Virus record (IMG/VR): IMGVR_UViG_3300024493_000235 | Coordinates: 160,001 to 224,000 of that record | From: a virus | Lineage: Duplodnaviria > Caudoviricetes | DNA: 64,000 nt | Strand: one strand, 5' to 3' | Part shown: piece by piece, positions 1-43,920 of the stretch | Layout: each line of letters begins with the position of its first letter | How positions within the stretch are numbered: position 1 is the stretch's first letter | The notes under the pieces: model-generated | What the model was told of the DNA's origin: nothing | Database searches by the model: none | What the model saw: only the letters and a program-made list of their open reading frames with translations | Translations under genes and position numbers: made by a program

Positions 1-1575
1 ATCGTCGTTGGAGAAAAAGTTACACTCGAACATAAATGCTGCGGAACAGTTTTCGAAGCAATTCCAAAAATGATTTTTGAAAATCGAGACTATGTCGATA
101 TATTCGCTCCGTCAAACGGAATGATGCAAATGCCGTATTGCCCAAGATGCAATAACGTCATGGTCAATGAAAACGCAAATTTTGGCGGAATGAAAATGAT
201 AGAGCATTTGCATTTCTTTTTCGACAAAATCGGTAAAGAATTTCCGTATGAATTTCCTGAAGACGATTTATTTAGATTTAGAGCGTACGAAGTTCCACTC
301 GTTATCGCTTGCAAACATTGCAAACACAGATTCCCAATAGCGCCGGAAGAATTATTTAAAATGAGTTTTACAGAATTATCAAAATGCCCGCGATGTCACG
401 GAGTTAAGAAAACCGGTGACATCGCAAAGGATGCAGTTATGCAAGAACAATTCAATCAAGCAAATGTGCATGTGGATAATGGTGTTCCGATACCTCCTCC
501 AATTCCCGACAATCAAGACCAGACAAAACATTTGCCACAAGAGGTCACAGTCGAATCAACACCAGAACCGGTTGGAGTTGGAGTGCCTATTCCTGCACAA
601 AATAACGACGTTCAACCAACTGACGATGTGTCAACAATTCAATCTGAAGAAAACGCCCAAAACGATGAAATAGTTGCAAGGGCTGTACAAGAAGCAAATG
701 AAGCTGTAAAAGAAATTGAAGGTGTTAACGAGTATGCAGAGTTTCAAGCTGATAGTGCGCCGCTTCCTGTAATTGTTGACCAAAACGGAATATACGATTC
801 GATACTTAACGAATCAGGATTATCAGTTGAATACGCAGACGACGGCAATGGTATGCTGAATGATGAAGTCGCAGTCACAGCAGAAGAGATGGAACAGGGA
901 TTCGTATCAACGCTTCCAACAGAAGATGAAGAACCTCAAGAAGACTTGATGCAAAATTCGGAAGATTTTGACAGTAACTATTCGGCAGACTATGTCCCAA
1001 CTGAAGTTGAGACGACAGAAAACGATTTTGCTAATCCTGAAGTGGACCAAAATCAAGAAGATGAATTACTTCAAAATCGAGGTGAGCTTACTCAAGACGA
1101 AGAGATTCCGTTCCAAGAAGATATCACTCAAGAGGATTTAGAATCAACTCGTGAAATTGCAAGCGACCTTTTGGGTGTACCTGAAGGTAACGAAGTTGTT
1201 CCCACTGAAGTTGAATACGCCGAAGAAGAATTTGACGAAAACGAAGGGATACCTGTCGAAATGGACTTAGAAGACGATAACGAATTGACAGATGTTCCGA
1301 CAGAACCGTATAACGGTGAAGAAAACGATTATCAAAATCAGCCAGTTGTATTTGAACAGCCAAACCCCGCCTCATATGCTCAATTTAACGGTGCAAATGC
1401 GAATAGTCAAAACCAAAACAAAGTAGATATTATATCTACAGGTAACTCTAGCAGCGAACAGAGAATTCCCGGTCAAAACGATTTAATGCAAGAAAACAAT
1501 CCTAATGTGAAACCGTATGAACGAACACTCGCCGATGACATACTAGATGCCGCAACCGACGATGTGTATTGGTAA
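1..1575 (+). CDS. Zn-ribbon repeat protein with long acidic low-complexity C-terminus (5' end lies outside the window)
   Basis: Frame is open from base 1 (IVVGEKVTLEHKCCGTVFEAIPK...). Cys clusters HKCC...CPRC and CKHC...CPRC, followed by ~350 aa rich in E/D/N/Q/P. Confidence 0.6.
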   Translation: MVVGEKVTLEHKCCGTVFEAIPKMIFENRDYVDIFAPSNGMMQMPYCPRCNNVMVNENANFGGMKMIEHLHFFFDKIGKEFPYEFPEDDLFRFRAYEVPLVIACKHCKHRFPIAPEELFKMSFTELSKCPRCHGVKKTGDIAKDAVMQEQFNQANVHVDNGVPIPPPIPDNQDQTKHLPQEVTVESTPEPVGVGVPIPAQNNDVQPTDDVSTIQSEENAQNDEIVARAVQEANEAVKEIEGVNEYAEFQADSAPLPVIVDQNGIYDSILNESGLSVEYADDGNGMLNDEVAVTAEEMEQGFVSTLPTEDEEPQEDLMQNSEDFDSNYSADYVPTEVETTENDFANPEVDQNQEDELLQNRGELTQDEEIPFQEDITQEDLESTREIASDLLGVPEGNEVVPTEVEYAEEEFDENEGIPVEMDLEDDNELTDVPTEPYNGEENDYQNQPVVFEQPNPASYAQFNGANANSQNQNKVDIISTGNSSSEQRIPGQNDLMQENNPNVKPYERTLADDILDAATDDVYW

Positions 1576-1790
1576 TACGTAAAACTCTTCTGGAAAACAG
1601 GTTATCTGTGGTATCTCCAAAAACGCTGACTTGACCGGCAGCGTTACACTCAATTAAGCGCGTCATTCATATAACGAGGCTCATGATGTATGAATGCGCC
1701 CACAGACTCGATTGTGGTTGAATGAATAACCACCCCGAAAATAACCAAACGCAGTATAAGCCTGCAATCATTTTTATTAGGAGAAAATTC

Positions 1791-4019
1791 ATGAGTGCAA
1801 ATACGCAAGATCAGAATGTGCCAATTCCGAATGCAGAGCCGACAATGCCAGCAGCTACTGGACCGGCTAATAGCGCAGGAAAAGCACAAGCTGTACATGT
1901 CGGCTCACATGTAGTAGCGCCGAATCCGTCAGCAGGACCTTCGATACCTGGTGGCGGACAAGCAAAAGGCCAACAAGCGGGAGGTGGACAGGCAAGACAA
2001 CAAGCTAGGCCGCAAACACCTTTCACAACAGGTTTCTCCGGTGCACAACCGAGAAATCAACAGTACCAGCAACAACAGATAAATCCAAAGCTGGTACTCG
2101 ACTTCACAAAGTTGCTTCAGTCGAATTCCGGCGATTCGGGCATGTTCAAAATGACCGAAATCGGAATGCTTCTGAACTCCATTGGGAATCAATACGGACA
2201 AGAAGTGACGGAAGTGGAATGGAGTCAAAGTCTCATGACGTGGAAAGCACGTTTGGGACAGTGTGTTGTTTACTTTGTCACAGGGCTTAAGAATAGGGAC
2301 ACACCTGTATTCAAAATTGTTGAACGTGATATGCCGCTTAATCCGTGGACATATTACGCGTATGGAAATCCCCTTACCCAACTTGTCCTTCCGACAGTGT
2401 GGAACGATCAAGGTGATGTGTGCATTTTGATTTACGAAGATGATTTTGAAATGTGCAGACGTGCCTTGGCCTATCATATCGGCAAATGCGCATTCCCGAG
2501 TTTGATAGGGGAAGGCTATATCTCTGAGGATAAATACTTAGGGCCAACAAGCGGGTTCCGCATTATCGACACGAGAATCGAAACGCACTTCAAAGAAGAG
2601 CTGTTAAGGTTCGTTCAAGAAAACCGATTAACGGCCATGGCAATTCCGGCAACGGAAGTTGTGGCTATGACTGTAAGCCAGCAACAAGGCTATGCAGGTT
2701 CATTCCAGTACGGCGGTCAGAATCCGTTCGGTGCTCCTCCATTTGGTGCGCCTCCAACAGGTTTTGGAAATGCCAATCCGTATGGCGTAGGACAAAACGG
2801 CGGGTTTAATATAAATCAGTCGTTTACAGCTTTACCGTCAACGATCGTTTTAGCCGCTGTGAAGTACCATGTGCGTGATGAGGAAGTTCCGGGATATACG
2901 GGACAGAAATTCCACATTGTGCACATCACAGAAATTATCGAGAATCGCCACTTCGTAGTGGAAGGGTTCTTGAAACATTTCATCATGCACTTTGCTCAAC
3001 AAGGGTATCAGATTTCCCTCGATTTAGATTTGAGTAAACTCAGCCAGCACCTCGTAGAACAGATAAAAATGTTCTTCTACGCAAATCCGCAAGATCCGAA
3101 AAGGTTCCACAATCAAATGGCATATATCCATCCGGATATGAAAACCTTTAACAGGATACACAACGATTATTTAACTCCAAAAACATTTTCTGCATTATTC
3201 CCAGATCTCGCCAAGGTTGACAAATTCCCCAAAGCCCTCCAATCCCAAGAAGACAAAGAGCGTTTTGAGGAATTCAAAAGAAGGGCGGGATACATACCGG
3301 TCTTGAGTGTAGGAGATCAGCATCTCCAGCTCAATCCTGCATGCGTACAATCTCTGTATACGGAGTTGCAACAGCGCAGATGGGCCGTGTATCATGGTAA
3401 AACGCTCGAAGAAGCGATCCAAGAATATGAGGAATCGCTTCAAAATCCTCAAAACAATCCGAACGCAGGACAGGCACAAGGCCAACAAAGGCAACAAGGT
3501 TATCAGAATCCAGGATTTAACAATCCGATGTTTGCCCAACAACCACAGTCTATGGGTTTTGGAATGGGGCCTAACTACGGCTATCAGCAAGGGTATGGAC
3601 AACCTCCTTTCCCAGGTCAGCCTCCGATGGGCGGTTTTGCCGCCCCTCCAGGGTATGGCGGATATCCGCAGCAACAACCATTCGGTCAGCCGCCATTTGG
3701 ACAGCAGCCGATGTATGGACAGATGGGATATGGCGTTCCGCCATACGGACAACCTTACCAAGCGCAACCTGATCCGAATATGAAAGGAAAAGGAAAAGGC
3801 GCCCCTCAACAACAGCAATTCCAGCAGCCATACTACTACCAGCAAGGATATGGACAGCCTTATCCCCAACAACCGCCAGGATATTATGGACCGCCGCAAG
3901 GAATGCAACCTCCGGGATATAATTATTACGGAGGACCTCAACCGCAAGGCCTTGCAGGTGGGGCATTCCCATATCAGCCATCGCCTCAACAACCCGGTGG
4001 TAAAGTGTTCGTGAACTAA
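1791..4019 (+). CDS. large protein with prion-like Q/G/P/Y/F-rich N-terminal, internal and C-terminal regions; candidate chimallin-position shell or condensate protein
   Basis: AGGAGA RBS before ATG 1791. Globular core ~aa 100-550; PFG/GQPP/QQGYG repeats; two genes upstream of RNAP beta'. Function is inferred. Confidence 0.55.
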   Translation: MSANTQDQNVPIPNAEPTMPAATGPANSAGKAQAVHVGSHVVAPNPSAGPSIPGGGQAKGQQAGGGQARQQARPQTPFTTGFSGAQPRNQQYQQQQINPKLVLDFTKLLQSNSGDSGMFKMTEIGMLLNSIGNQYGQEVTEVEWSQSLMTWKARLGQCVVYFVTGLKNRDTPVFKIVERDMPLNPWTYYAYGNPLTQLVLPTVWNDQGDVCILIYEDDFEMCRRALAYHIGKCAFPSLIGEGYISEDKYLGPTSGFRIIDTRIETHFKEELLRFVQENRLTAMAIPATEVVAMTVSQQQGYAGSFQYGGQNPFGAPPFGAPPTGFGNANPYGVGQNGGFNINQSFTALPSTIVLAAVKYHVRDEEVPGYTGQKFHIVHITEIIENRHFVVEGFLKHFIMHFAQQGYQISLDLDLSKLSQHLVEQIKMFFYANPQDPKRFHNQMAYIHPDMKTFNRIHNDYLTPKTFSALFPDLAKVDKFPKALQSQEDKERFEEFKRRAGYIPVLSVGDQHLQLNPACVQSLYTELQQRRWAVYHGKTLEEAIQEYEESLQNPQNNPNAGQAQGQQRQQGYQNPGFNNPMFAQQPQSMGFGMGPNYGYQQGYGQPPFPGQPPMGGFAAPPGYGGYPQQQPFGQPPFGQQPMYGQMGYGVPPYGQPYQAQPDPNMKGKGKGAPQQQQFQQPYYYQQGYGQPYPQQPPGYYGPPQGMQPPGYNYYGGPQPQGLAGGAFPYQPSPQQPGGKVFVN

Positions 4020-4058
4020 AAGAGAAAGCAAAGGAAAACTTTATTAATACGAATGGAA

Positions 4059-4090
4059 TGCTGGGAGATTTATTGCTCCCAGCATTTTTT
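4059..4090 (+). terminator. rho-independent terminator
   Basis: TGCTGGGAG...CTCCCAGCA stem followed by a T tract. Confidence 0.75.
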
Positions 4091-4188
4091 ATTTTCTCTA
4101 AAAATTATCAGTTACTCACCTTATGAATTTTTAAAAATAAGAAAATTAAAAACAATGTCTTTAACAAAAATATAAGGAGAGTAAGCTC

Positions 4189-4887
4189 ATGGAACAAAAT
4201 CAAGACACCGAAGTTACAGGAAGTACGAAGAAACGTCTTACTGTGAAATCAACACAAAAAACATCTCATATCGCGAAAAAGGTATATGCGCCTTTTGAGA
4301 TTATGAGACAGATGAAGAATCCAAGTAACTATGATGTAGTTATAATTACTTTGGAAAGATACGAAGATGATGACGCTGTGTATGCGAGAGCCGCAAGGTC
4401 ATTAGTACACGACCTTCCTGGAGAAAATTTAAGAAAAGCAAAAACCTTCACCCTCAACAGGTCGTATGAAGGCGATTACAATGACGACATACTTTCTGTC
4501 GATACATCCGATTTTAAAGTAACCGAATGGTATCCGCCTATGATGAGTACGGCGTTTGATATGATAAGAAAATCGTTGGAAAATATAACAAAGAAATCAA
4601 ACGATTTTCTAGCGATACGAAATATCGAAGGCTTTCCGATAAATGACGCGTTTTGTGTTACAGTAAGTAACAATGAAGAACCTGTGTTTTTCGCCCTTCG
4701 TACGAGAACCCAACTTGTCTTTTTATACGACACGTTCCATACCTGCAAGAAGAAAAATATTTCTGCAGACTCAACTGTCGTTCTTGAATGTCAAAAACTA
4801 TTCCTTGCTTTCTTAAGCGAGGTGACAAAGATAGAAACTGCATACTCGACCTTCGCGCTACGAAATGCGTTAGGGTTACTAAACTGA
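4189..4887 (+). CDS. hypothetical protein
   Basis: 232-aa ORF with AAGGAG RBS. Confidence 0.7.
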   Translation: MEQNQDTEVTGSTKKRLTVKSTQKTSHIAKKVYAPFEIMRQMKNPSNYDVVIITLERYEDDDAVYARAARSLVHDLPGENLRKAKTFTLNRSYEGDYNDDILSVDTSDFKVTEWYPPMMSTAFDMIRKSLENITKKSNDFLAIRNIEGFPINDAFCVTVSNNEEPVFFALRTRTQLVFLYDTFHTCKKKNISADSTVVLECQKLFLAFLSEVTKIETAYSTFALRNALGLLN

Positions 4888-4895
4888 GATTTGAG

Positions 4896-4905
4896 TATAC
4901 ATAAT
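4896..4905 (+). promoter_or_regulatory. putative early/middle phage promoter motif TATA(C/T)AT(C/A)AT
   Basis: TATACATAAT upstream of RNAP beta'; the motif recurs upstream of about 12 genes. Confidence 0.55.
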
Positions 4906-4935
4906 TTTCCCGACTGATAAGGAGAAGAAACAAGA

Positions 4936-6444
4936 ATGGAACTTGCCATTTTTAACATGGAATCTCAGTATCAACAGGATATGAAAACGGGTGTGGGCAT
5001 CGAAATTGACACACCCGTTCCTGTTACTAAGAAGGAAATCATCAGGAATCCTCGTGGCATTTACTCTTCGTTATTTGGCGGAGATATCTCGGATACCGAT
5101 GAATTGCAAAAAAGATATCAGTGTTCTTGTGGAGAAAAAACTGGAAAGTTCCACGAGAGATCAGTCTGTGAGAAATGCCACACCCCGGTCACGTTTCAAG
5201 ACAACGAACTTGAAAAAACAGGTTGGATGAGCCTGTGCGACCCGTACGTATTAATCACTCCGAGGCTTTTTCGGTTCATAGAAAAAGTTTTAAAACCCAA
5301 ACGTCTTGATGAAATGCTAAAGTTCGATCATCGTTTTGATGCTAACGGCGTTATCATTTATGATACCACAGTCGATGCAAAGAATCCGTATGCAAATATC
5401 GGTATAAATGAATTTGCAAGACGCTTCGATGAAATACTTGAAGTGATGGCGGATAAAACAAAGGAACTCGAAATAGCTTTTATTAAGAAGCACAGAGGAG
5501 AAATATTTACTCGTAGAATTCCTGTTTTGAATTTGCTTTTACGTCCGGTTGTATTAATCAGTAATACTACTTTTAATTACGACCCTATCAATATGTATTA
5601 TGCGGAGATGATGAGTCATGTGCATTATATTAATAACAATATTAACAATGAGCACACGCAATCATCGCTTCAGATACTGTACGAACTGCAACGTAAATGG
5701 GTTTCCCTTGATGCTGAAATCATAAAGCAAAAAATAAACGGGAAAAAACATACGATAAGACAATTTGTTCTTGGAAGTAGGGTTAACTTTTCTGCTCGCC
5801 ATGTCGTCGTTCCAAATTTGGACACGGTCAAAATAGATTCTCTTAAAATTCCCTATTATACATTCTGTGAATTTTATAAATTTCACATTATGAATATCTA
5901 CAAAAAGATATATAGGGTTACGGTAAACGAACTTAATGATAGGTGGTACACACTTGTCATGACTCGGGATCCGTCTATTTTGCATATTATCAATATTCTT
6001 ATTAAGAGAACCAAAGGCGGTCTTAGGATGTATGTTAATCGTCCTCCGACTATCGCACTGGGTTCAATTCAAGTCTTTAAAGTGACCGCAATAAACGAAG
6101 ACTTCGACGATTTAACGGCATCTCTTCCGCTTTGTATTTTACCTTTGATGAACTGTGACTTTGATGGCGATTGTCTTTCGTTTATACCTCTTATTGATTC
6201 TATTTTTGCAGATAAAATGCAAAAATATTTTTCATCACAGAGGTTGGTTGTAAATCCATCGACAGGGTTATACAATAGACGAGTGGGACTCATTAAGGAC
6301 CAGTTAGTCGGGTTGTATTCGTTCTGCAACGATTCGTACAGTCCGCAGGACTTCGCAAGCGAAGATGACAAGTTCACGATTATAACTCCGGAAATTTTAC
6401 ATGCCAGGGATATGTGGTACAAACGTAACCGGAGAGCTGCCTAA
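4936..6444 (+). CDS. multisubunit phage RNA polymerase beta' subunit, N-terminal part (probably non-virion RNAP)
   Basis: Zn finger CSCG...CEKC, LRPV, G-S-R-V-N-F-S-A-R, NRPPT, and catalytic NCDFDGD. Confidence 0.93.
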   Translation: MELAIFNMESQYQQDMKTGVGIEIDTPVPVTKKEIIRNPRGIYSSLFGGDISDTDELQKRYQCSCGEKTGKFHERSVCEKCHTPVTFQDNELEKTGWMSLCDPYVLITPRLFRFIEKVLKPKRLDEMLKFDHRFDANGVIIYDTTVDAKNPYANIGINEFARRFDEILEVMADKTKELEIAFIKKHRGEIFTRRIPVLNLLLRPVVLISNTTFNYDPINMYYAEMMSHVHYINNNINNEHTQSSLQILYELQRKWVSLDAEIIKQKINGKKHTIRQFVLGSRVNFSARHVVVPNLDTVKIDSLKIPYYTFCEFYKFHIMNIYKKIYRVTVNELNDRWYTLVMTRDPSILHIINILIKRTKGGLRMYVNRPPTIALGSIQVFKVTAINEDFDDLTASLPLCILPLMNCDFDGDCLSFIPLIDSIFADKMQKYFSSQRLVVNPSTGLYNRRVGLIKDQLVGLYSFCNDSYSPQDFASEDDKFTIITPEILHARDMWYKRNRRAA

Positions 6445-6461
6445 AGGAGATAAAAAGAGGT

Positions 6462-7028
6462 ATGCATAAAAAATACACAATTTCTTTCGATGCCGATAAA
6501 ATACAATCTAAAGCGAACGCTGGCAAAACAATCGGATATTATGCAAAATGCTTAAACAACGTTTTGCAGGATTTACATTTCCCAAAGAAAACTTCACATG
6601 CGGAAAAGAGTGAACAAAAAATTTCTCGTACCGCTTTAAACGACGTAAAGAAAAACGTAGATGCGTTACTTGAGATTAAATATCCAAAACGTATAACAAT
6701 CGAAATATTTCAAGAGATGCAGGATAACATTGTATCTTCAATAGTGCAGCTTATGAAAGTATATGCAAATCTTGAAAACGATTACACGCTTGACAGTTAT
6801 TCGAAAAATGAGTACAACGATCCATTATCTAAAGTCTATAACGTTCATGCTGACGGTCAGACAAAAATGATCGAAGAAGCTTCAATGCATTCTCCTGAAC
6901 CGTATCATAATCCTGAAGATGAAGACTTCGACGATTATGATGACGATGACGAAGACTTTGATGAAGATCTTGATGATCCTGTTGATGAAGACAGAGACAT
7001 CGACGATGACGACTTTGACGATGATTAA
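6462..7028 (+). CDS. hypothetical protein with poly-Asp C-terminal tail
   Basis: 188 aa; last ~35 residues are mostly D/E. Confidence 0.7.
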   Translation: MHKKYTISFDADKIQSKANAGKTIGYYAKCLNNVLQDLHFPKKTSHAEKSEQKISRTALNDVKKNVDALLEIKYPKRITIEIFQEMQDNIVSSIVQLMKVYANLENDYTLDSYSKNEYNDPLSKVYNVHADGQTKMIEEASMHSPEPYHNPEDEDFDDYDDDDEDFDEDLDDPVDEDRDIDDDDFDDD

Positions 7029-7115
7029 TTTAAATCTGTAGAGGGAGAAATCCCTCTACATAATTTTTATTTGAGAATAACAGAAAAACATTTGAATAGA
7101 CAAAAGGAGGAATTT

Positions 7116-7598
7116 ATGAATCCGTTATTCCAATCGTGCATATCAAATATACGATACAAAGCAGATTTTGAAGGAATAAATGATCCTGTAAAGTTTCATT
7201 CAAAACACGCATGCAGTTTTGATATTCAATCTGCTAAAGATTACGACATTTGGTTTGGAAAAGTAGTCATTGTTGAGACAGGACTTCATCTTGAGATACC
7301 GTTGGGATTTGAAGCGTTAGTTCGTGGAAGATCCGGTCTTGCATCAAAGGGAATTCAACCATATGGAGGTATAGTTGACAGCGATTATACAGGGGAGATA
7401 AAAGTACTTTTATCTTGCTGCAACTTGGAGTTTACACCAGAGAAACCTTTTCACATTGTAAAAGGCGATAGAGTCGCTCAATGTGCATTTAAGAAAGTAT
7501 GTTTTTTAAGTGATACAAGTGAAATGACTTTTGAAAAAGTTGATGTATTAAAAGAAACCGAAAGAGGCGAAAACGGTTTAGGTTCCACAGGGAACTAA
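7116..7598 (+). CDS. dut: trimeric dUTPase
   Basis: Motifs GRSGLA, GIVDSDYTGEI, GDRVAQ, RGENGLGSTG; AAGGAGG RBS before ATG 7116. Confidence 0.95.
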   Translation: MNPLFQSCISNIRYKADFEGINDPVKFHSKHACSFDIQSAKDYDIWFGKVVIVETGLHLEIPLGFEALVRGRSGLASKGIQPYGGIVDSDYTGEIKVLLSCCNLEFTPEKPFHIVKGDRVAQCAFKKVCFLSDTSEMTFEKVDVLKETERGENGLGSTGN

Positions 7599-7614
7599 AA
7601 GGAGATACAACTGT

Positions 7615-10113
7615 ATGAAAAATGATACACATCTTTTGATGATACAAAAATCAAACGATAAAATCTTTACTCTCGATAAGGAATTCATTGAGAGTTATGA
7701 AAATAAAAACCCCAAAAACGGAATGGACATATTAGGTCTTGTTACCTTTTATCGCACATACTCTCGTATGCTTGAAAAAGAAGAACGAAACGAGCATTGG
7801 TTTGAATGTGTTCGCCGTGTCGTAGAAGGAGTCATGAATATTCAAAAAGAATATTGTATGAATCATCGTCGCAAATGGTCTGATATAAAGGCACAGAGAA
7901 TAGCCCAGATTATGTACGACAAAATGTTTAACTTTAAAATGATTCCCCCAGGAAGAGGATTGTGGATTATGGGTTCTTCTTTTATTAAAGAAAGAGGAGC
8001 TGCGGCATTAAATAACTGCGCATATATTTCTACAGAAAATATAGGAGATCCGAAAGAATCTTCAATGTGTTTTGCATGGACTATGGATATGCTCATGTTA
8101 GGATCAGGCGTTTCCTCTGATACAAGGGGTGCCGGGAAAGTCGTCATAAAGCAACCAAAACCAACGGTGAAAGTATATACAATTCCTGACTCAAGAGAAG
8201 GTTGGGTTAACTCATTATGGATGCTCATGGAAAGTTATTTTCAAGGAACTGAGTCTGTTGATTTTAATTATAGTCTAATACGTGAAAGAGGACTTCCGAT
8301 AAAAGGATTTGGAGGAACTGCTTCTGGCCCTGATCCTTTGAAGATATTGCACAACTTCATCCGAGAGTTATTTAATAAAAGAATTGGTTTAACACTATCA
8401 TCAGTTGATATTGTTGATATCATGAATAACATCGGACGCTGCGTTGTAAGTGGGAACGTGCGCAGATCAAGTTGTCTCATGTTAGGCGATCCTGACGATA
8501 CCGAATTTGTTACGATGAAGGATCCCGTTCTTCATAAGGAAGAACTTATAAGTCACAGATGGGCAAGTAACAATTCAGTGAATGCTGTTCCAGGAAAAAT
8601 AAGATACGAAGATTACATCGATTCTATTTGTGCGAATGGAGAACCAGGTTTTGTGTGGCTTTCTAATATTCGTAAACACGGTAGAATGATGGATCCAGTG
8701 GATGACGTTGATATTAACGTCGGAAACTTAAATCCGTGCTTTACAGGTGATATGAAACTTCTTACTAAAGATGGATACGTGACATTTGATCAACTTGATG
8801 ATATAGGTTGCGAAGTTGATATCGTTCGTAAAGACGGTTCTATAGGCCCCGCGCAAATAATATACACAGGAAAGAAAATCATCGCTGAAATATATGTCGC
8901 CGGAGTTGAAGAGCCGCTTAAATGTACGCACGATCATGTATGGATGCTTTCTAATGGAACTGAATGCAAAGCAATAAACTTGCAGGGAAAGACTTTAAAG
9001 AATTATTCATATATGAAAACACGGCCGATTGTTACCAAAGTCGTTCTTAAGAACGATGAAGAGGATGTATTTGATTTTAAAGAACCTAAATTCCATTGGG
9101 GTATTGTTAATAACTTTTTTGCACATAACTGCGGAGAGATTTGTCTTGAATCTGGCGGCATGTGCAATTTAGTTTCTGTAATTCCGGCATATCATGATAC
9201 ATATGATGAGTTTGAAGAATCTCTTAAATATGCATATATGTATGCAAAAACGGTAACACTTCTTGATACCGGATGGCCAAATACTGACGAGATTATACGT
9301 AATACTCGTCGTATTGGTATTTCTCTGTCTGGAGTTATTGACGCTTTTGAAAAACACGGAAGAGATAAAATGTTAAAGTGGTGTCGAGACGGATACAATT
9401 ATGTGCGTAAACTCGACAAAGAATATTCGGAACACTGGCTTCATATTCCAGAATCATCCAGAATTTCTGCACTGAAGCCCGACGGCACAACATCGCTATT
9501 GACAGGAAGTTCTCCTGGAATACATTACCCGTTCGATAAGTATTATATTAGGAGAGTTAGAATAGATTCGAGCTCCCCCATTTGCAAGATACTTACAGAA
9601 CACGGCTATCATTATGAAGTCGAAAGAGAAAACTTTGTTTTCGAATTTCCTGTAATGAAAGAGCATTTTGGAAAATCGGTACAAACGTGTACAGTCGAAG
9701 ATCAATTTCGTAACGCTTCTGACATGCAAGAGATGTGGGCTGATAATTCTGTTTCTATTACGATAACTTTCAGACATCAGATTAAAAGAAACGAAAAAGG
9801 AGAACCTATCGATGAAAACAATAATGTCATTACGTCTGGAAATCCTAAAGATTACATCGTCCTTGAGAGCGATAAAGACGAAGTCGTTCGGTGCTTGTAC
9901 AAATATGAAAATAGATTAAAGGCTGTATCTTTACTTCCTGACGATCCGTTTGCATACGCTCTTATGCCGTTTGAGTCTATCACAAAAGAAAAGTTTGATA
10001 GAATGTGGGAGAAAATAACTCCTATTAATTTCAAAGAAATTAACATCTATCAGAAACCGGAAGTAATCGAACGATTCTGCACAAAAGATTCGTGCGATAT
10101 TATAAAACCATAA
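7615..10113 (+). CDS. nrdJ: class II (adenosylcobalamin-dependent) ribonucleotide reductase, intein-containing
   Basis: RTYSR, PPGRGLW, LNNC, PDSREGW, GFGGTASGP, VVSGNVRRS, NP/CGEI split by the intein, KPDGTTSLL, C-terminal CxxxxC. Confidence 0.92.
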   Translation: MKNDTHLLMIQKSNDKIFTLDKEFIESYENKNPKNGMDILGLVTFYRTYSRMLEKEERNEHWFECVRRVVEGVMNIQKEYCMNHRRKWSDIKAQRIAQIMYDKMFNFKMIPPGRGLWIMGSSFIKERGAAALNNCAYISTENIGDPKESSMCFAWTMDMLMLGSGVSSDTRGAGKVVIKQPKPTVKVYTIPDSREGWVNSLWMLMESYFQGTESVDFNYSLIRERGLPIKGFGGTASGPDPLKILHNFIRELFNKRIGLTLSSVDIVDIMNNIGRCVVSGNVRRSSCLMLGDPDDTEFVTMKDPVLHKEELISHRWASNNSVNAVPGKIRYEDYIDSICANGEPGFVWLSNIRKHGRMMDPVDDVDINVGNLNPCFTGDMKLLTKDGYVTFDQLDDIGCEVDIVRKDGSIGPAQIIYTGKKIIAEIYVAGVEEPLKCTHDHVWMLSNGTECKAINLQGKTLKNYSYMKTRPIVTKVVLKNDEEDVFDFKEPKFHWGIVNNFFAHNCGEICLESGGMCNLVSVIPAYHDTYDEFEESLKYAYMYAKTVTLLDTGWPNTDEIIRNTRRIGISLSGVIDAFEKHGRDKMLKWCRDGYNYVRKLDKEYSEHWLHIPESSRISALKPDGTTSLLTGSSPGIHYPFDKYYIRRVRIDSSSPICKILTEHGYHYEVERENFVFEFPVMKEHFGKSVQTCTVEDQFRNASDMQEMWADNSVSITITFRHQIKRNEKGEPIDENNNVITSGNPKDYIVLESDKDEVVRCLYKYENRLKAVSLLPDDPFAYALMPFESITKEKFDRMWEKITPINFKEINIYQKPEVIERFCTKDSCDIIKP
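8737..9129 (+). mobile_element. 131-aa mini-intein (no homing endonuclease) in nrdJ
   Basis: Starts CFTGD (block A), contains CTHDH (block B TxxH), ends FAHN followed by extein Cys; removal restores NPCGEI. Confidence 0.92.
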
Positions 10114-10128
10114 CGAAAGGAGAAAATT

Positions 10129-10899
10129 ATGGGACCAGAAGATTTGGGGGAGATGCTTTACGAAGGAAAAGCAAAAAAATTGTATGCCGTTCAAAATTGG
10201 CCAGAACTTGTTGTCATAGAATATAAGGATGATGCAACAGCCAATAACGGAGAGAAGAAAGGACAGATTGCGAACAAAGGAAAAATAAATAATGCGATTG
10301 CATCAAAATTATTTGAAGTCCTTAAAGCCGAAGGCATTCCAACACATTTTGTCCGTAAACGTACTGATACCGAAATGGTGTGTAAAAAAGTCGAGATCAT
10401 AAAACTTGAAGTCATCATCCGAAATCTTATCGCCGGTTCCATGGCAAAACGTCTTGGAATTAAAGAGGGGACGGCTCCCGAAACGACAATCTTTGAGCTT
10501 TCGTACAAAGACGATTCGCTTGGCGATCCTCTTATTAATGATTATCACGCCGTCGGAATTGGAGCTGCGACCTTCGAAGAAATTGAGACCATTAAGACTT
10601 ATGCGTTCAAAATCAATAGGATACTCAAGAGATTCTTTTCTAAACGAAGAGTGAACGTAGTCGATTTCAAACTTGAATTTGGACGTGTTATTGATGAGAA
10701 TGGGGAAGTAACACGTGAGATTGTTCTCGCCGACGAGATATCTCCTGATACTTGTCGGTTCTGGGATCAAAAGACAAATGAAAAACTCGACAAAGATCGG
10801 TTCCGTCGGGATCTTGGCGGCATTGAAGAAGCATATAACGAAATTGAGGCAAGGATCCTTATGAATGACGACGAGGTATCGCGTATATGGAAGACATAA
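10129..10899 (+). CDS. purC: SAICAR synthetase
   Basis: [40 protein letters not shown]. Confidence 0.95.
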
Positions 10900-11463: not shown

Positions 11464-12432
11464 GTGAAATTATATTCTGAAACCTTCACATATAAACAAT
11501 ATGATGAAAATTTTCACATAAGCTCAATGCTTAAAGACCTGAAAAATCATATTACAATTGTCGATAAAGAAGTTTTTTCATCTAAAGTGTTAGAAATTGA
11601 CAAAATGGTAAATATCTCTATAAAGAAATCCGTAATGAAAGATTTCGATGAGAAAGCCATTGTATTTTTTGTTACAAACGACGATTTTCCATTACCTTCT
11701 ACAGTGCCCGTATTTATAGTTCCTGATAAAACCTCAAATTTAAGATACAGAGCAATTGTCAATATCACAGGCCACAGTAAAATCTCAAAAGACGAATTTG
11801 GAAAAATTGAAAGTGTGGAAATCGAGAATAAGAAAATGTTTACACTTCTTGCTACAGGATGGATTTACAGAAAACTGTTTCTCGATGATTCAGCGTTCTT
11901 TATTAATTCGGGCATTGTAAAGGTAGCTGCAAATATGTACGCAAGATTGTGCTACAAAATTCTTGATAAGAAATGGTCCATTGGTGTCGACTTCAAAAGA
12001 GTCGATGTTGCAATGGTTATATTTGCTTATTTTTTTGCATATTATGTCGCAGGGGAACCTAAAAGGGCGTTGGATATAGCATCTGCTATTGATGCCGTTA
12101 CAAATTTAAATGAAGGTGTTAAGGTTGCTCGTGACATAATAAAGCATGTAAAGGATCCAAAGCATCCGTTTAAGGATTTCAGGGATTGTATCGAACTTTT
12201 GAATAAATCCATTAGTGAGATTGTCCCTATCGATGCTCTTACATTCATAGGGGTCTTTGCACAACATTGGCAAGGTTCAACTGTGCCAGGAATTGATTAT
12301 CTTCCCTACTTTGTGATGACAATCGTTTCTTCATTTATAGGAGCCGGACTTGCGAGGGATACGGCCGTACTTCAAGTTGTACGAAAAGATGCCGATACTT
12401 TCATTAAAATGCTAAGTGAAGTATACAAATAG
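11464..12432 (+). CDS. putative virion structural protein
   Basis: 322 aa, AGGAGG RBS, first gene after a late promoter. Confidence 0.55.
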   Translation: MKLYSETFTYKQYDENFHISSMLKDLKNHITIVDKEVFSSKVLEIDKMVNISIKKSVMKDFDEKAIVFFVTNDDFPLPSTVPVFIVPDKTSNLRYRAIVNITGHSKISKDEFGKIESVEIENKKMFTLLATGWIYRKLFLDDSAFFINSGIVKVAANMYARLCYKILDKKWSIGVDFKRVDVAMVIFAYFFAYYVAGEPKRALDIASAIDAVTNLNEGVKVARDIIKHVKDPKHPFKDFRDCIELLNKSISEIVPIDALTFIGVFAQHWQGSTVPGIDYLPYFVMTIVSSFIGAGLARDTAVLQVVRKDADTFIKMLSEVYK

Positions 12433-27721: not shown

Positions 27722-28909
27722 ATGAACACAATTACAATCGGAATCGGAGCCGCAGGATCTGCCATTGCTGAAGTCGCAGTCCGTTTAGGATTTGGGCAAG
27801 CAATGGCTATGAATTCAAGTTCCGAAGATTTAGACGCCGTAAAATTAATCGATCCGGCAAGACGAATTAAACTGCGCACACTAGATGGCGCAGCGAAAAA
27901 CAGAAACTCAGCATTAGCTGCGTTCAAAACCGAATACCAAAACTTTTTGACCAATGTAAACAACGCCTTTAACGCTACAGGTACCATAGTAGTTCCTGAT
28001 CTTATTTTCGTTGTCGCCTCTGGTGGAGGCGGGACAGGCTCAGGTATTCTTCCTGTGGCCAGCAGAATATTGCGAAAAACATATCCTGACAGCTTTGTAA
28101 TTCCTGTCATTGTTCTTCCGTCCCTTTATGAGAGGGGAATTGCGCAGCAAAATGCGATTGACTGTCTGCGCGAACTCGGCCCGACACAGGATGAAAAGAA
28201 AGATCCTTCATGGAAGGATTTTACAATCATTCTGGCCGATAACACACGAGAACAAACCGACTTGTTGGAAAAGAAGTATGAACTTATAAATTCCAACATA
28301 GTTGGCAACATACAAAGACTCGTCTCAACCACAAAAACTTCCCGTATTTCAAATATGGATATTGCCGACAGAAAAGCTATGTTCTCAGACCCTGGAATCA
28401 TGGTAATAGGAAGCGCGACTGTAAAGAACGATGAGGAATCTCCGATACGCGCCGCGATAAAAAGAGCGATAGAAGCTACGGCAATGTCCGCAGATATAAC
28501 CGCCAGTGTAAAGCGCGTTGCAATTCAAGTTGAAGCCTCAACAAGCCTCTATACCGAGAAAAACATCGTCGACGCTCAAAGCATGTTTAAAAATGCCGCA
28601 GGTGTCTTCGAAGGCTATTACGGTTTGGATGAACCGGCAGTCGCTACAGAAGGAAAGACAGGCGACGGTAAAGTGCTTGTAGCATTCTCCGGCGCAAGAC
28701 TTCCTGAAAAGGTGATAAGGGAACGTGAAGCAATCATTGAAGATACATTCAAAGTTCCTACAGAAAGTGCCGTCGAAATTGCCAAAGGAAACAAAGATCT
28801 TAAATCGGCTTGGAGTTCTTCGACAAAATCGACTCCGGCAGCGGCGACAGAACCTGCCGCACAAAACTTTGACGATATCTTTGCGGGTATTGAAGGAGAA
28901 AGGACTTAA
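27722..28909 (+). CDS. phuZ: tubulin/FtsZ-family GTPase (PhuZ/TubZ-like)
   Basis: IGIGAAGS, GAAKN, tubulin signature GGGGTGSG, PSLYE, DN, NMDIAD T7-like loop, flexible tail ending in an acidic motif. Confidence 0.9.
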   Translation: MNTITIGIGAAGSAIAEVAVRLGFGQAMAMNSSSEDLDAVKLIDPARRIKLRTLDGAAKNRNSALAAFKTEYQNFLTNVNNAFNATGTIVVPDLIFVVASGGGGTGSGILPVASRILRKTYPDSFVIPVIVLPSLYERGIAQQNAIDCLRELGPTQDEKKDPSWKDFTIILADNTREQTDLLEKKYELINSNIVGNIQRLVSTTKTSRISNMDIADRKAMFSDPGIMVIGSATVKNDEESPIRAAIKRAIEATAMSADITASVKRVAIQVEASTSLYTEKNIVDAQSMFKNAAGVFEGYYGLDEPAVATEGKTGDGKVLVAFSGARLPEKVIREREAIIEDTFKVPTESAVEIAKGNKDLKSAWSSSTKSTPAAATEPAAQNFDDIFAGIEGERT

Positions 28910-40845: not shown

Positions 40846-43800
40846 ATGGCCAATAATTTACAAATTGTACCGCCTAAAAAAATAGCAAAACCTGACGGGG
40901 CTTCTACTTATCGAGAATTATCAGAAGTACAGGATGCATTTTTACACGGTGTGTCAAGAGATTATATCGAAAGAAATACCGAATTTATCAATAACGTTGT
41001 AGATAAAGTACAGCAAATAACCACCCAATTTAACAGAAACGTTGCAGCCAGTTCTCCTAAAATGCTCGTTGATGCAATAAAATCTAACGTCCTTGATAAT
41101 AATGCAAAAGCATCGAAGAATGATAATTCGAAACAAGGGTTTGTAACTGGTGTTAAAGGGTTAACCGATCTTTCAAAAGATATGGATCTTTTTAGGGAAT
41201 TATACCCGATTGCGACCCCGATGTTTGAATTGTTTTATGAATATCAAATGGTAGCTGGGATGATACCCGAGGCTTCAAAGTGTTTTGATATTCTTAAGAA
41301 TTCGGTTCTTTCCGCAGATAGTTTTTCAAAGCAATACCTTATCGCTCGCTATGATACTTTCAACGCAAGTCAGAAATCTACGACAGATGATATTACAGAA
41401 AATGATCAAAGACATGTACGTCTTATAAAGGATATCATTGAAGAATATGACCTTAATATTCTTTTTGACGGATATGTGACCGATGCCATGATGTATGGTG
41501 CTAAACCTGTAATGATAATTCCGATTGACGACACCTTCAGAAAATCCGCAGAACAAGTTTTACGAGCTGAAAGCGCTAACGAAGTTCGAGACATTATTCG
41601 CTCATCATATGATGCTGGTGTTAATGTGTCTATGGAAAATTATATCGAGTATGAATCAACAACTATAGACGGAAAAAAAGTGTATGAAGACACTCCGTTT
41701 GCTGATGAATTTTCCGATGCAATTGATAATCTCACTGCTGTATATGAAGATGCTCTCGATTTTGAAGAAGCGATGCTCAGAGATAATTCGAGTTTATCAA
41801 AGGAAGATACCGTAGCATGTGAAAATGCCATCAAAGCTCGAAAGGTACAATTAAAGCGTGTACGAGATAAAACAAAGCGAAAAGACATTTTGAAAGAGTT
41901 TGCAAGAGAGTGTAGCAAAATAGTCGATTCAAAAGTCAAATTTTCTCTTGCAACAGAATCTGTCACTCTTCGTACAGTAAGTAAAATTGCAGGACAATTG
42001 AAGACATACAGAAGAGCGCAACTGTACAATACTCGTGGAAGTAAGCCGCATAATGTTGTTACTACTGAGGGTGTGTCTTTTAAAGATATTTACTCCGATG
42101 AAGTTACACTCGAAAATGATATTGGACTTTTGTGTGATTTGATAAGCCAATCGAAATACGAAAAAGTTGAAACAACGGTACAGAAAAGAGATAATAACGG
42201 TGTAGTAACAGAGGTCGTTAAAGAATCCTGGAAAATGGTTACACCGGATATTTTTACCCTTGAATCAAAAAGATCTGGAACCTTTGGTACACCGCAGAGA
42301 AAAAGCAAACAAGAGGATTTGGAGGATCTCGATCCTGAATCTAAAACAACAGTTTCAAAGAAAACTACAGGGTCTGTCATAATACCTCTTCCTCCAGATA
42401 CGGTTGTTCCTATATCTGTACACGGAAAGCATATAGGATACTATGTAATAGAACGCCTTGGAAGTGATGATTTAGGATCCGGTGTTGCAACTTTATTAGG
42501 ATACAGACCTGCGAATTCATTATATTCAATCGGTATGGCAGGCCATATGTTTACAGGAAGCGGAGCTATGACAGGAACAGATGGCGCTGGTATCATTCTT
42601 CGTGACATGTCAGATCTTCCTATGGCAGTCCGTGATGATGGGCAAAGATTTGATTTACTTCGTTCAATGCTTGTACGCGCCATATCGGAACGTGTTGGAA
42701 ATCCTGATATCGTTGATGATTCCGCATTCAATTCCATCATATTCTCGCTTATCAAAAATAATTACATTACAAAACGTGAAGTGAGAATTACGTATGTTCC
42801 GGCACACATGATGGTTTATTTCTCTCATGAAATAGATTCTGATACAGGTATCGGAATTTCCGTATTCAAAAACGGTTTATTTTTTGCTCATATTTATATT
42901 GCGTCTCTTATAACGAATCTTATGATAGCAATATCAAAGTCGGCAGACAGAGAGCAAGTAAATGTCGAAATAGGATCCCATGGAAGAATTGAAGCTACAG
43001 TGCAAAAAGTGATGAGATCCCTTCAAACAAAACGAGCTTCTATAGATAGTATCGGAAATATCGATACTATTATGAAAAGCTTAGGTACTTTCCAAAGGTA
43101 TATATCTTTACGTCATAACGGAAATCCTTTAGTGGAATTGGAAACAATACCAGGACAGGATATAAGCCTTGAAAACACCCTTATGGAAAAAGCGTTACAA
43201 TCCTTTATAAACTCGTTTTATGTGCCAGCATCTTCGATTAATCAGCTTAATGAACAAGAGTATGCTCGTAGTATTACGTTACAAAACGCGCTCTTTTTGG
43301 ATAAGATTGTAGTATTACAACAGATGTATCAGGAATGTATGACAAAATTTACTCGCATTCTTATTCGTAACAAACATCCAGAGAAGATTTACAACGAAGC
43401 CAACATTAAGAACTTTGATGTCGATAAGGATCCGAACACACGAAATGCTGATGATGACATGACCGAACTTATTGATATCAACAAAATATTTACAGATCTT
43501 CCGTCTCCTGAAGGTCTTAACATTTCGGCATTTAACGATCAAATCGGAAATGTTTCTTCATTCGTAGATTCTCTTATTGATATTCTTCTTCCTCTTGGTA
43601 TCAAAGAAGAACTTGTCGATCCTGTTAAGATGCTCATCAAGAAAAAGATGTTTAAACGCTATATGCCTAATCTTCCAATGGACGAATTTGATGATTTTGC
43701 TTTGGAATCTGTTACTGAAGCAAAGAAATCAAAAATGGCACATCCCGAAACTCCGGAGGAGCAACAATTTGCAAGTAGCTCTGGCAGTGGTATCGGTGGA

Positions 43801-43920
43801 GGAGGTTCAATGGGTGGATTTGGCGGAGACATGGGTGGAATGGGTGATCTTGGTGGCGATATGGGAATGGGAGATCTTGAAGAACCCGGAGCAGAACAAA
43901 ATCCCACTGACCTTATGTAA
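40846..43920 (+). CDS. probable portal protein (phiKZ/T4 gp20-like, with a large insert)
   Basis: EYQMVAGMIPEASKCFDILKNSVLS resembles the portal N-terminal motif; DAMMYG, PISVHG.HIGYY, VP...I; G/M/D-rich tail; late promoter at 40807. Confidence 0.65.
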   Translation: MANNLQIVPPKKIAKPDGASTYRELSEVQDAFLHGVSRDYIERNTEFINNVVDKVQQITTQFNRNVAASSPKMLVDAIKSNVLDNNAKASKNDNSKQGFVTGVKGLTDLSKDMDLFRELYPIATPMFELFYEYQMVAGMIPEASKCFDILKNSVLSADSFSKQYLIARYDTFNASQKSTTDDITENDQRHVRLIKDIIEEYDLNILFDGYVTDAMMYGAKPVMIIPIDDTFRKSAEQVLRAESANEVRDIIRSSYDAGVNVSMENYIEYESTTIDGKKVYEDTPFADEFSDAIDNLTAVYEDALDFEEAMLRDNSSLSKEDTVACENAIKARKVQLKRVRDKTKRKDILKEFARECSKIVDSKVKFSLATESVTLRTVSKIAGQLKTYRRAQLYNTRGSKPHNVVTTEGVSFKDIYSDEVTLENDIGLLCDLISQSKYEKVETTVQKRDNNGVVTEVVKESWKMVTPDIFTLESKRSGTFGTPQRKSKQEDLEDLDPESKTTVSKKTTGSVIIPLPPDTVVPISVHGKHIGYYVIERLGSDDLGSGVATLLGYRPANSLYSIGMAGHMFTGSGAMTGTDGAGIILRDMSDLPMAVRDDGQRFDLLRSMLVRAISERVGNPDIVDDSAFNSIIFSLIKNNYITKREVRITYVPAHMMVYFSHEIDSDTGIGISVFKNGLFFAHIYIASLITNLMIAISKSADREQVNVEIGSHGRIEATVQKVMRSLQTKRASIDSIGNIDTIMKSLGTFQRYISLRHNGNPLVELETIPGQDISLENTLMEKALQSFINSFYVPASSINQLNEQEYARSITLQNALFLDKIVVLQQMYQECMTKFTRILIRNKHPEKIYNEANIKNFDVDKDPNTRNADDDMTELIDINKIFTDLPSPEGLNISAFNDQIGNVSSFVDSLIDILLPLGIKEELVDPVKMLIKKKMFKRYMPNLPMDEFDDFALESVTEAKKSKMAHPETPEEQQFASSSGSGIGGGGSMGGFGGDMGGMGDLGGDMGMGDLEEPGAEQNPTDLM

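Follow-up and report, generated by a model that had tools for sequence, protein, structure and literature searches.

The stretch studied here, hereafter the window, comprises bases 160,001-224,000 (64,000 nucleotides) of a 268,442-bp IMG/VR virus record (IMGVR_UViG_3300024493_000235; CheckV completeness 91%). Near its start lies the gene for a 742-aa protein, P0002, encoded upstream of the N-terminal half of the beta' subunit (beta'N) of a non-virion RNA polymerase (nvRNAP). We consider it somewhat probable that P0002 is a shell protein of the chimallin type that has diverged very far, carries sticky tails of much increased length and possibly stems from an enzyme-like family. We would say the same, with equal reserve, of its being the functional, and probably the evolutionary, counterpart of ChmA in an uncultured jumbo-phage lineage with multisubunit RNA polymerases (RNAPs). 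The chimallin-type reading is the most economical in view of the class of the predicted fold, the genomic slot, the lack of any other candidate, the end-anchored tails and the fast-evolving, apparently non-enzymatic core.

Predicted core fold, tails and family

The gene and the parts of its product are as follows.

1791..4019, + strand: gene for the chimallin-like protein (P0002), 742 aa, stop codon included (open reading frame [ORF] translation, 13 homologues)
1791..2081, + strand: N-terminal low-complexity region, residues 1-97, Q/A/G/P (composition, family alignment)
2082..2684, + strand: core N-domain, residues 98-298 (AlphaFold2 [AF2] secondary structure, alignments)
2685..2834, + strand: internal disordered G/F/N/P loop, residues 299-348 (predicted local distance difference test [pLDDT] <50 at model residues 202-251; composition)
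2835..3446, + strand: core C-domain, residues 349-552 (plus 257-298), with a GNAT/Mom-like predicted fold (GNAT matches at Z ~7 over model residues 146-435)
3447..4016, + strand: C-terminal low-complexity tail, residues 553-742 (composition, family alignments)

The core was modelled as 455 residues (98-552). When AF2 was given the 14-sequence family alignment, the model reached a pLDDT of 82.8 and a predicted template-modelling score (pTM) of 0.79, with disorder confined to the loop, whereas the single sequence yielded a poor model (pLDDT 36). The known chimallins (ChmA/PhuN; phiKZ gp54, 201phi2-1 gp105, PhiPA3 gp53 and Goslar gp189; PF25677; PDB 7SQQ-7SQV, 8IGG and 8FNE) are among the systems closest to P0002. 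A Foldseek search of 350,542 PDB chains returned chimallins at all of ranks 1-8 (201phi2-1 gp105, phiPA3 PhuN and Goslar; probability 0.98-1.00, E 3.5e-4 to 2.5e-3), with GNAT toxins and acetyltransferases ranking next. Using VIA-align, 298-330 residues could be aligned to chimallins at Z 10.9-12.7, matching model residues 1-435 to chimallin residues 52-578; the next non-chimallin PDB entry scored Z 7.8, and single GNAT domains 7.8 or less. An all-against-all scan of 48,161 representative chains, independent of Foldseek, gave Z of at least 8 only for the Goslar, 201phi2-1 and phiPA3 chimallins, which score Z 10.8-12.7 over the two comparisons. The model thus has the two-domain protomer fold of chimallin at an rmsd (root-mean-square deviation) of 5-8 Å, a predicted enzyme-like family discussed below fitting slightly better.

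Within the model, the N-domain is predicted to run alpha-beta-beta-beta-alpha-beta, as in restriction-endonuclease (REase)-like folds, and the disordered loop separates beta2 from beta3 in the GNAT-like domain. Taken singly, the C-domain resembles the GNAT toxins AtaT and TacT and phage Mu Mom (PDB 7AK7, 7BYY, 6GTR and 8BV8; Z 6.9-7.3, ~150 residues aligned). These are single-domain matches to enzymes with cofactor sites, whereas inspection of the family alignment found the Q/R-x-x-G-x-G/A acyl-CoA motif absent after beta4 of the C-domain. The N-domain strands likewise carry no conserved D...E-x-K-type acidic/lysine motif in the family alignments, the mapping of strands to catalytic positions being taken from the AF2 model. 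Among polar residues only one E and two Y are invariant in the family, the remaining invariant positions being mostly G, P, A and aromatics. The lack of both checked catalytic motifs and the nature of these invariant residues point to a non-catalytic role for the core. Chimallin itself consists of an N-domain and a GNAT-like C-domain related to AtaT, and AtaT-type relatives of its C-domain were likewise noted by Laughlin et al. (PMC9365700).

Around and within this core, approximately 45% of the protein (~340 residues) is uncharged Q/G/P/Y/F low complexity. The ORF spans 1722-4019 on the + strand, and translation probably begins at position 1791, at an ATG with AGGAG before it. Residues Q, G, P, Y, F, N and M together make up 55% of the N-terminal region (charged 7%), 76% of the loop (charged 0%; G24 F12 N12 P12) and 89% of the tail (charged 3%, aromatic 16%; Q23 P21 G20 Y11), compared with 34% in the core halves, where 21-24% of residues are charged. 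The tail contains 31 aromatic residues, with nine YG, nine GY and three FG dipeptides. Among the 295 ORFs of the phage genome (268 kb) that are 100 aa or longer, P0002 is by this measure the most extreme in composition, its best 60-aa window scoring 0.97 and that of the runner-up ORF 0.63. Tandem Repeats Finder detected just three weak short arrays (scores 31-43) in the underlying DNA, so the bias is compositional and does not stem from recent DNA expansion. That 11 of 12 homologues share a C-terminally anchored motif shows that translation continues to the end of the frame. The sequence-only reading from which this analysis started had located these tracts correctly and quoted a peptide from the loop accurately (its G/F-rich string is residues 307-338). 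Its remark on the great rarity of this composition among phages has to be softened, because the short tails of phiKZ chimallin share a G/Q/Y/M/A flavour; given those, the tails of P0002 look like an expansion of an existing chimallin feature.

HMMER, run exhaustively over 1.84 billion representatives, recovered 13 homologues, all metagenomic (26-43% identity, E 2e-105 to 3e-11), and all share one layout: N-motif, linker, core N-domain, G/F loop, C-domain and tail. The N-motif, R/K-x-Q/S-x-x-K/H-V-x-x-H-I/V-x-P at residues 29-46 (nt 1875-1928), is present in eight of nine full-length homologues and is followed by a Q/N/G linker. The most conserved stretch of the family (identity 0.53) is the block N-x-K-L-x-L-D-F-x-L-L, found in P0002 as N-P-K-L-x-L-D-F-x-L-L at residues 98-112. 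The loop is G/F-rich throughout and variable in length, reaching ~250 aa in homologue P0015. Homologue tails are 79-223 residues long and G/Q/P/N-rich, with 5-17% F/Y/W and 0-25% Met, so that across the 14 proteins a sticker-spacer composition is kept in kind while the sequence itself drifts. A basic K/G patch within the tail is likewise part of the shared layout and in P0002 occupies residues 661-672 (nt 3771-3806). At the C-terminus, AGGAFP followed by Y-I/V-P-N/S lies at a constant distance from the end in 11 of 12 homologues; in P0002 (residues 719-742, nt 3945-4016) AGGAFP is followed by a final aromatic-V/I-P/V-N.

These conserved pieces form position-anchored candidate docking segments at both termini of the homologues, separated from the core by disordered linkers. 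In chimallin, the segments NTS (48-61), CTS1 (590-611) and CTS2 (622-631) dock on neighbouring protomers via linkers of 8-10 residues (PMC9365700), and the N-P-K-L block that opens the core N-domain of P0002 is a candidate equivalent of the NTS. Homologue P0015 ends, after a G/M/Q/P-rich linker, in G-T-D-I-P-F, the C-terminal tip sequence of the bacterial single-stranded DNA-binding protein (SSB), which has a G/Q/P-rich linker of its own leading to a short conserved tip; P0015 may mimic that tip.

Other searches did not recognise the family. Neither Pfam (E<=1), PHROGs nor PDB sequences, queried singly or by profile, matched the core, and tblastn of the whole protein and of the core against 50,697 phage records gave nothing relevant, as did a megablast of 12 kb. 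A word-indexed protein search returned the query alone, whether run with the single sequence or a profile, low-complexity words saturating its candidate list. An IMG/VR scan with a subset family alignment found no confirmed relatives. A protein-atlas search gave no usable feature match, and its structure matches depend on the Atlas's own poor model. Literature searches on chimallin with low complexity, structural homologues or Mom turned up no prior description of this family, and the reviews consulted mention neither it nor chimallins with long low-complexity tails.

Gene order, transcription and genome context

The features around the gene that bear on its interpretation are listed below.

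L014 9567, outside the window: promoter-like site TATATATAAT, just ahead of the ATG of the Zn-ribbon gene
1..1575 (genome 159,599-161,575), + strand: upstream partner (Zn-ribbon) gene, 3' part; 658 aa from ATG, translation P0070
4055..4088, + strand: strong terminator-like hairpin, 13-bp stem with 6 G-C pairs and a T run (terminator scan)
4189..4887, + strand: unrelated 232-aa gene between the P0002 gene and beta', sequence not conserved among homologous loci
4896-4905: promoter-like site TATACATAAT, preceding the beta'N gene
4936..6444, + strand: non-virion RNAP beta', N-terminal half (phrog_2987 E 1e-65, Pfam RNA_pol_Rpb1_2; matches phiKZ gp55 and PhiPA3 gp54)
27722-28909: tubulin gene (Pfam Tubulin, 47 bits with the cut-off at 33; weak PhuZ PHROG match)

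In phiKZ, the nuclear shell gene gp54 stands directly ahead of gp55 (beta'N), and gp56, an HNH endonuclease, lies beside gp55. The sequence-only reading had named RNAP beta' and a PhuZ-type tubulin as neighbours of P0002; both are in place, the PhuZ PHROG match being weak. The linkage to beta' also extends to the relatives, with a P0002 homologue upstream of a beta'N homologue in all six homologous loci for which DNA was available and the same order in a seventh, DNA-less place. Between zero and five small genes separate the two (three in L010 by both ENA and JGI gene calls), and in locus L005 the slot of the 232-aa gene is occupied by an RNase H. Core identity across loci is 29-38%, against 50-66% for the adjoining beta'N. 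Chimallins also evolve fast, those of Goslar and 201phi2-1 sharing 19% identity (PMC9365700).

The gene upstream is equally constant. It encodes three treble-clef-like CxxC...CxxC Zn ribbons, whose Pfam Zn-ribbon matches are weak, followed by ~350 aa of acidic (D/E-rich) disorder, and a Zn-ribbon/acidic protein is always encoded upstream of P0002 relatives, with homologues at that position in L004, L005 and L010. In P0015 (L010 10001-13453) the Zn-ribbon protein is fused N-terminally to the core, an arrangement present on two independent contigs (L010 and L011); P0070 matches the N-terminus of P0015 at E 4e-44. Further upstream, and divergently oriented, lies a gene for a 1107-aa protein with a weak M48/zinc-metallopeptidase motif (genome 155,770-159,093; L014 5770-9093, minus strand), which occupies the same position in L004, L005 and L010 at 28-49% identity.

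A promoter-like decamer, TATAYATMAT, occurs 16 times in the window compared with 1.9 expected (e.g., at 4896, 27655, 32533, 33568, 36277 and 45093), and several copies stand just upstream of genes, including those for beta'N, tubulin and DNA polymerase. No copy was seen in the 215-nt spacer (1576-1790) between the Zn-ribbon gene and the P0002 gene. Because a promoter-like site precedes the former, none lies between the two and a hairpin follows the latter, they are probably one two-gene unit closed by the terminator-like hairpin. The spacer contains an inverted repeat, CATTCATA...TATGAATG, which may form a hairpin for processing or regulation inside such a unit. A termite-gut metagenome run, possibly the source of the window, contains positions 1-9000 in identical form. 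In two termite-gut samples of one study, one of them the sample of that run, RNA-library contigs cover several near-identical pieces of the P0002 gene, and pieces from both samples stop at 4026-4029, just past the stop codon. These contigs are consistent with transcription of the gene; they neither prove nor rank its expression.

The gene set of the window is of the jumbo-phage type, with an SbcC-like protein, a phiKZ-type DNA polymerase, virion proteins, tubulin and RNAP beta'N, and the genome as a whole carries both multisubunit RNAP sets plus tubulin. The gp74-gp75 pair of phiKZ is also conserved elsewhere in the genome. Six-frame searches of the 91%-complete genome with PF25677 and phiKZ gp54 found no canonical chimallin. 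Searches by tblastn with phiKZ gp65-86 and gp50-63 recovered homologues of RNAP, helicase and DNA polymerase only, though BLAST at this divergence would miss a chimallin too. Downstream of beta'N, the window also holds a nucleotide-metabolism block comprising genes for a dUTPase/dCTP-deaminase-like protein (7071-7598), a class II (B12) ribonucleotide reductase (7615-10113) and a SAICAR synthetase (10129-10899).

Enzyme-like proteins and rival explanations

Several results weigh against a chimallin identity. The global template-modelling (TM) score of the core to chimallins is only 0.35-0.39, with the rmsd of 5-8 Å extending over ~300 residues, and there is no sequence or profile likeness: an hhalign comparison of the family with the chimallin alignment gave a probability of 0.5%, PF25677 was not matched, and in BLASTP against phiKZ gp54 the low-complexity stretches alone matched. 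The comparison with ChmA that the sequence-only reading had proposed for the core is borne out by predicted fold, chimallins being the only PDB chains at Z of at least 8, and not by profile. The terminal motifs have a naive identity of 0.35-0.42, which is not above that of the compositionally biased linkers; restricted alphabets inflate identity, so a block-wise measure fails to separate the two. The phiKZ proteins PicA (gp69), gp67 and gp70, examples of the nucleus-specific core genes of Chimalliviridae, and gp68 were not found by tblastn, the limit of BLAST given above applying here too.

The affinity of the polymerase also counts on this side. The beta'N protein is closer to those of Bacillus phage BpSp (AR9-like; 195 bits) and Yersinia phiR1-37 (178 bits) than to that of phiKZ (69 bits); this affinity is a matter of similarity scores and not of a rooted tree, the virion-RNAP paralogues that would serve for rooting being undetected at E<=0.001. 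PBS1, PALS_2 and phiR1-37 are treated in reviews as phages without chimallin, the detection of chimallin having been sequence-based, and BpSp is likewise taken to have none. Neither BpSp nor phiR1-37 has a comparable gene upstream of beta'N. Despite its BpSp/phiR1-37-like beta'N, the genome under study has a phiKZ-like gene order near this gene, namely a shell-like gene ahead of beta'N and the gp74-gp75 pair.

The strongest structural competitor comes from predicted models of viral proteins. In a Foldseek search of BFVD, the chimallin-sized proteins (E 5e-5 to 6e-3) are outranked by ~20 others of 400-590 aa (E 2.5e-9 to 1e-5 over ~400-425 columns), and these higher-ranking proteins are annotated as endonuclease-like or homing endonuclease. 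ESM Atlas clusters with Zn-finger, helix-turn-helix or Mom domains gave TM 0.49-0.55 over 270-321 residues at an rmsd of 4.0-4.8 Å. An example from phiR1-37 combines treble-clef Zn fingers with a REase_MTES_1575 and a Mom domain; this 561-aa protein is presumably the BFVD match G4KKB0. Others are I7KLM9 of Campylobacter phage CP21 and A0A4Y5JUX8 of PA5oct, and the Pfam signature of the group is PF14311/PF05265 + PF18741 + PF25680. We know of no experimental test of the function of such Zn-finger/REase/Mom-like phage proteins. Since these predicted enzyme-like proteins match better, the chimallin match may partly reflect a shared two-domain architecture. From the models, an N-domain of nuclease-like and a C-domain of Mom/GNAT-like type appears to be common to P0002, chimallin and the enzyme-like family, and it is plausible that the latter was ancestral to both the P0002 family and chimallin. 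A search for a DUF7487 link to the core fold led instead to two unrelated nuclease/methyltransferase genes, paralogues encoding ~700 aa at genome 73.6-75.7 kb and 91.9-94 kb. Besides DUF7487 repeats, these have a Vsr/REase-like domain and, at the C-terminus, one resembling DNA methyltransferases, with DPFMG and TCPPY motifs.

On this basis, P0002 could be a degenerate or specialised member of the Zn-finger, REase-like and Mom-like group that acts on DNA together with the Zn-ribbon protein, as a DNA-binding or DNA-modifying factor or a domesticated homing element, and forms no compartment. We regard this as rather unlikely. The group supplies the best predicted-structure matches, covering both core domains, and the treble-clef-style CxxC...CxxC modules encoded upstream, and fused in P0015, recreate together with the core the architecture of the phiR1-37 protein. 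Polymerase genes often have homing endonuclease genes as neighbours, as phiKZ gp55 has gp56 (HNH), and short local resemblances to Mom motifs seem by eye to be in register (G-F-x-K-x-x after beta4 and G-Y-x-x-V/I...G near the C-terminus). However, Pfam Mom (PF25680) and REase domains were matched neither by P0002, with the threshold relaxed to E 1, nor at any place in the genome, and hhalign of the family against the phiR1-37 member gave a probability of 0.2%. D...E-x-K-type residues are not conserved in the N-domain strands, the acyl-CoA motif is absent, and the Zn fingers of the enzyme-like proteins lie on the same polypeptide as their other domains, whereas in most members of the P0002 family they are encoded by a separate gene. 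An enzymatic role would leave ~340 low-complexity residues and the end-anchored motifs unexplained, and the low-complexity tails and loop are absent from the phiR1-37 proteins. Moreover, the gene has kept one locus across phages whose beta'N differ by 34-50%, unlike a selfish element. The sequence-only reading held that a core matching an unrelated known fold such as an enzyme, in a protein that neither self-assembles nor forms condensates, would speak against it; the first part applies in some measure, since the match to a predicted enzyme-like family is slightly the better one, but chimallin itself has a GNAT-type C-domain and the catalytic motifs are absent from P0002. Its description of a highly diverged chimallin with aromatic tails gains from the predicted fold, the synteny in six of six loci, the absence of a canonical chimallin and the end-anchored motifs, and loses something to that enzyme-like match.

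The tails invite a different explanation, in which P0002 is the scaffold of a liquid or gel-like condensate (a replication or transcription factory) held together by aromatic, Gln and Met contacts, with the core as an oligomerisation hub or client module and no ordered lattice. Approximately 45% of the protein is indeed uncharged sticker-spacer sequence with 31 aromatics in a 190-aa tail and YG/GY/FG motifs, the family keeps this composition while its sequence drifts, and bacterial SSB, which has a linker of similar composition, has been reported to phase-separate. Linkers of 50-110 residues also far exceed the needs of a tight lattice, which chimallin meets with 8-10 (PMC9365700). Against this, the core is large, and its model well folded and chimallin-like, while motifs at the very ends suggest specific docking over diffuse cohesion; we find such a scaffold quite improbable. 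Both this idea and that of an FG-like mesh were raised in the sequence-only reading on the strength of composition, and either may apply. It is very improbable that P0002 is instead a virion or injected protein (inner-body, head-decoration or fibre-like), its tails serving packaging or adhesion and its adjacency to beta' a coincidence. Several nearby genes do match virion structural PHROGs (11464-12432, phrog_21032; 40846-43920, phrog_3004), and low-complexity G-rich tails occur in some phage fibres. Yet P0002 matches no structural-protein family or fold, its predicted fold resembling chimallin, GNAT and Mom and not capsid, tail or fibre proteins, and its gene sits among genes of early or replication type, namely those for the Zn-ribbon protein, RNAP, dUTPase and ribonucleotide reductase.

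Proposed working and significance

If P0002 is a chimallin-type shell protein, its 455-residue core, both domains of which are apparently non-catalytic, would be the lattice protomer. Short conserved segments would dock on neighbouring protomers in the manner of chimallin NTS, CTS1 and CTS2, the candidates being N-P-K-L-x-L-D-F at residue 98, the basic K/G patch near 665 and the terminal AGGAFP...Y-I/V-P-N. These segments would hang on uncharged Q/G/P/Y/F linkers of 50-110 residues, and the linkers, together with the 50-residue G/F loop, could coat or cross-link the assembly in a disordered layer that is cohesive and rich in aromatics. P0002 would act together with the Zn-ribbon/acidic protein encoded upstream. 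The outcome may be a lattice under a sticky coat, a more loosely cross-linked gel or a condensate.

P0002 shares with chimallin the predicted two-domain core with its GNAT-type C-domain, a similar size class (742 vs ~630 aa), a gene position upstream of nvRNAP beta'N, a jumbo-phage genome that encodes tubulin and two multisubunit RNAPs, and disordered N- and C-terminal extensions of G/Q/Y/M/A flavour that end in short conserved segments. It differs in its linkers (50-110 residues compared with 8-10; PMC9365700), in the 50-residue G/F loop inside the GNAT domain, in an extra conserved motif far out in the N-terminal tail, and in its conserved, sometimes fused, Zn-ribbon/acidic partner. Sequence and profile likeness to chimallin are not detectable, and the RNAP of the lineage looks nearer to those of AR9-like phages and phiR1-37 than to that of phiKZ. 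What is new here is the scale and chemistry of the disorder, in the linkers and the inserted G/F loop, and the Zn-ribbon/acidic partner. With FET prion-like domains and FG nucleoporins the protein has in common uncharged G/Q/P/N spacers, Y/F or Met stickers and YG/GY/FG dipeptides, a likeness of composition and not of homology; FG dipeptides are sparse, with six in 742 aa, and Y and Q prevail in this member.

The lineage may thus have a novel means of building or gating a nucleus-like compartment. One specific form of this, a hybrid compartment, we hold to be unlikely: a chimallin-type lattice in which ~340 disordered residues per protomer would form a cohesive selective-barrier or client-docking layer, by analogy a whole-surface counterpart of the FG phase of the nuclear pore. 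As a corollary, the family would be an intermediate, chimallin having arisen from a Zn-finger/nuclease/Mom-like DNA enzyme encoded beside an RNAP gene.

Nucleus-forming phages are currently defined by sequence searches (PSI-BLAST and HMMER), to which the P0002 family is invisible. The protein is accessible by heterologous expression, with no need for phage culture. If it is a true shell protein, nucleus-like compartments would reach uncultured lineages of termite gut and other metagenomic samples whose RNAP resembles that of phages thought to be nucleus-free, and the family would serve as nature's own experiment on how the flexibility and selectivity of the lattice depend on the length and chemistry of the tails. 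The fused homologue and the structural link to Zn-finger/nuclease/Mom-like proteins would then offer a concrete and testable origin for chimallin, unlike the earlier toxin-antitoxin proposal.

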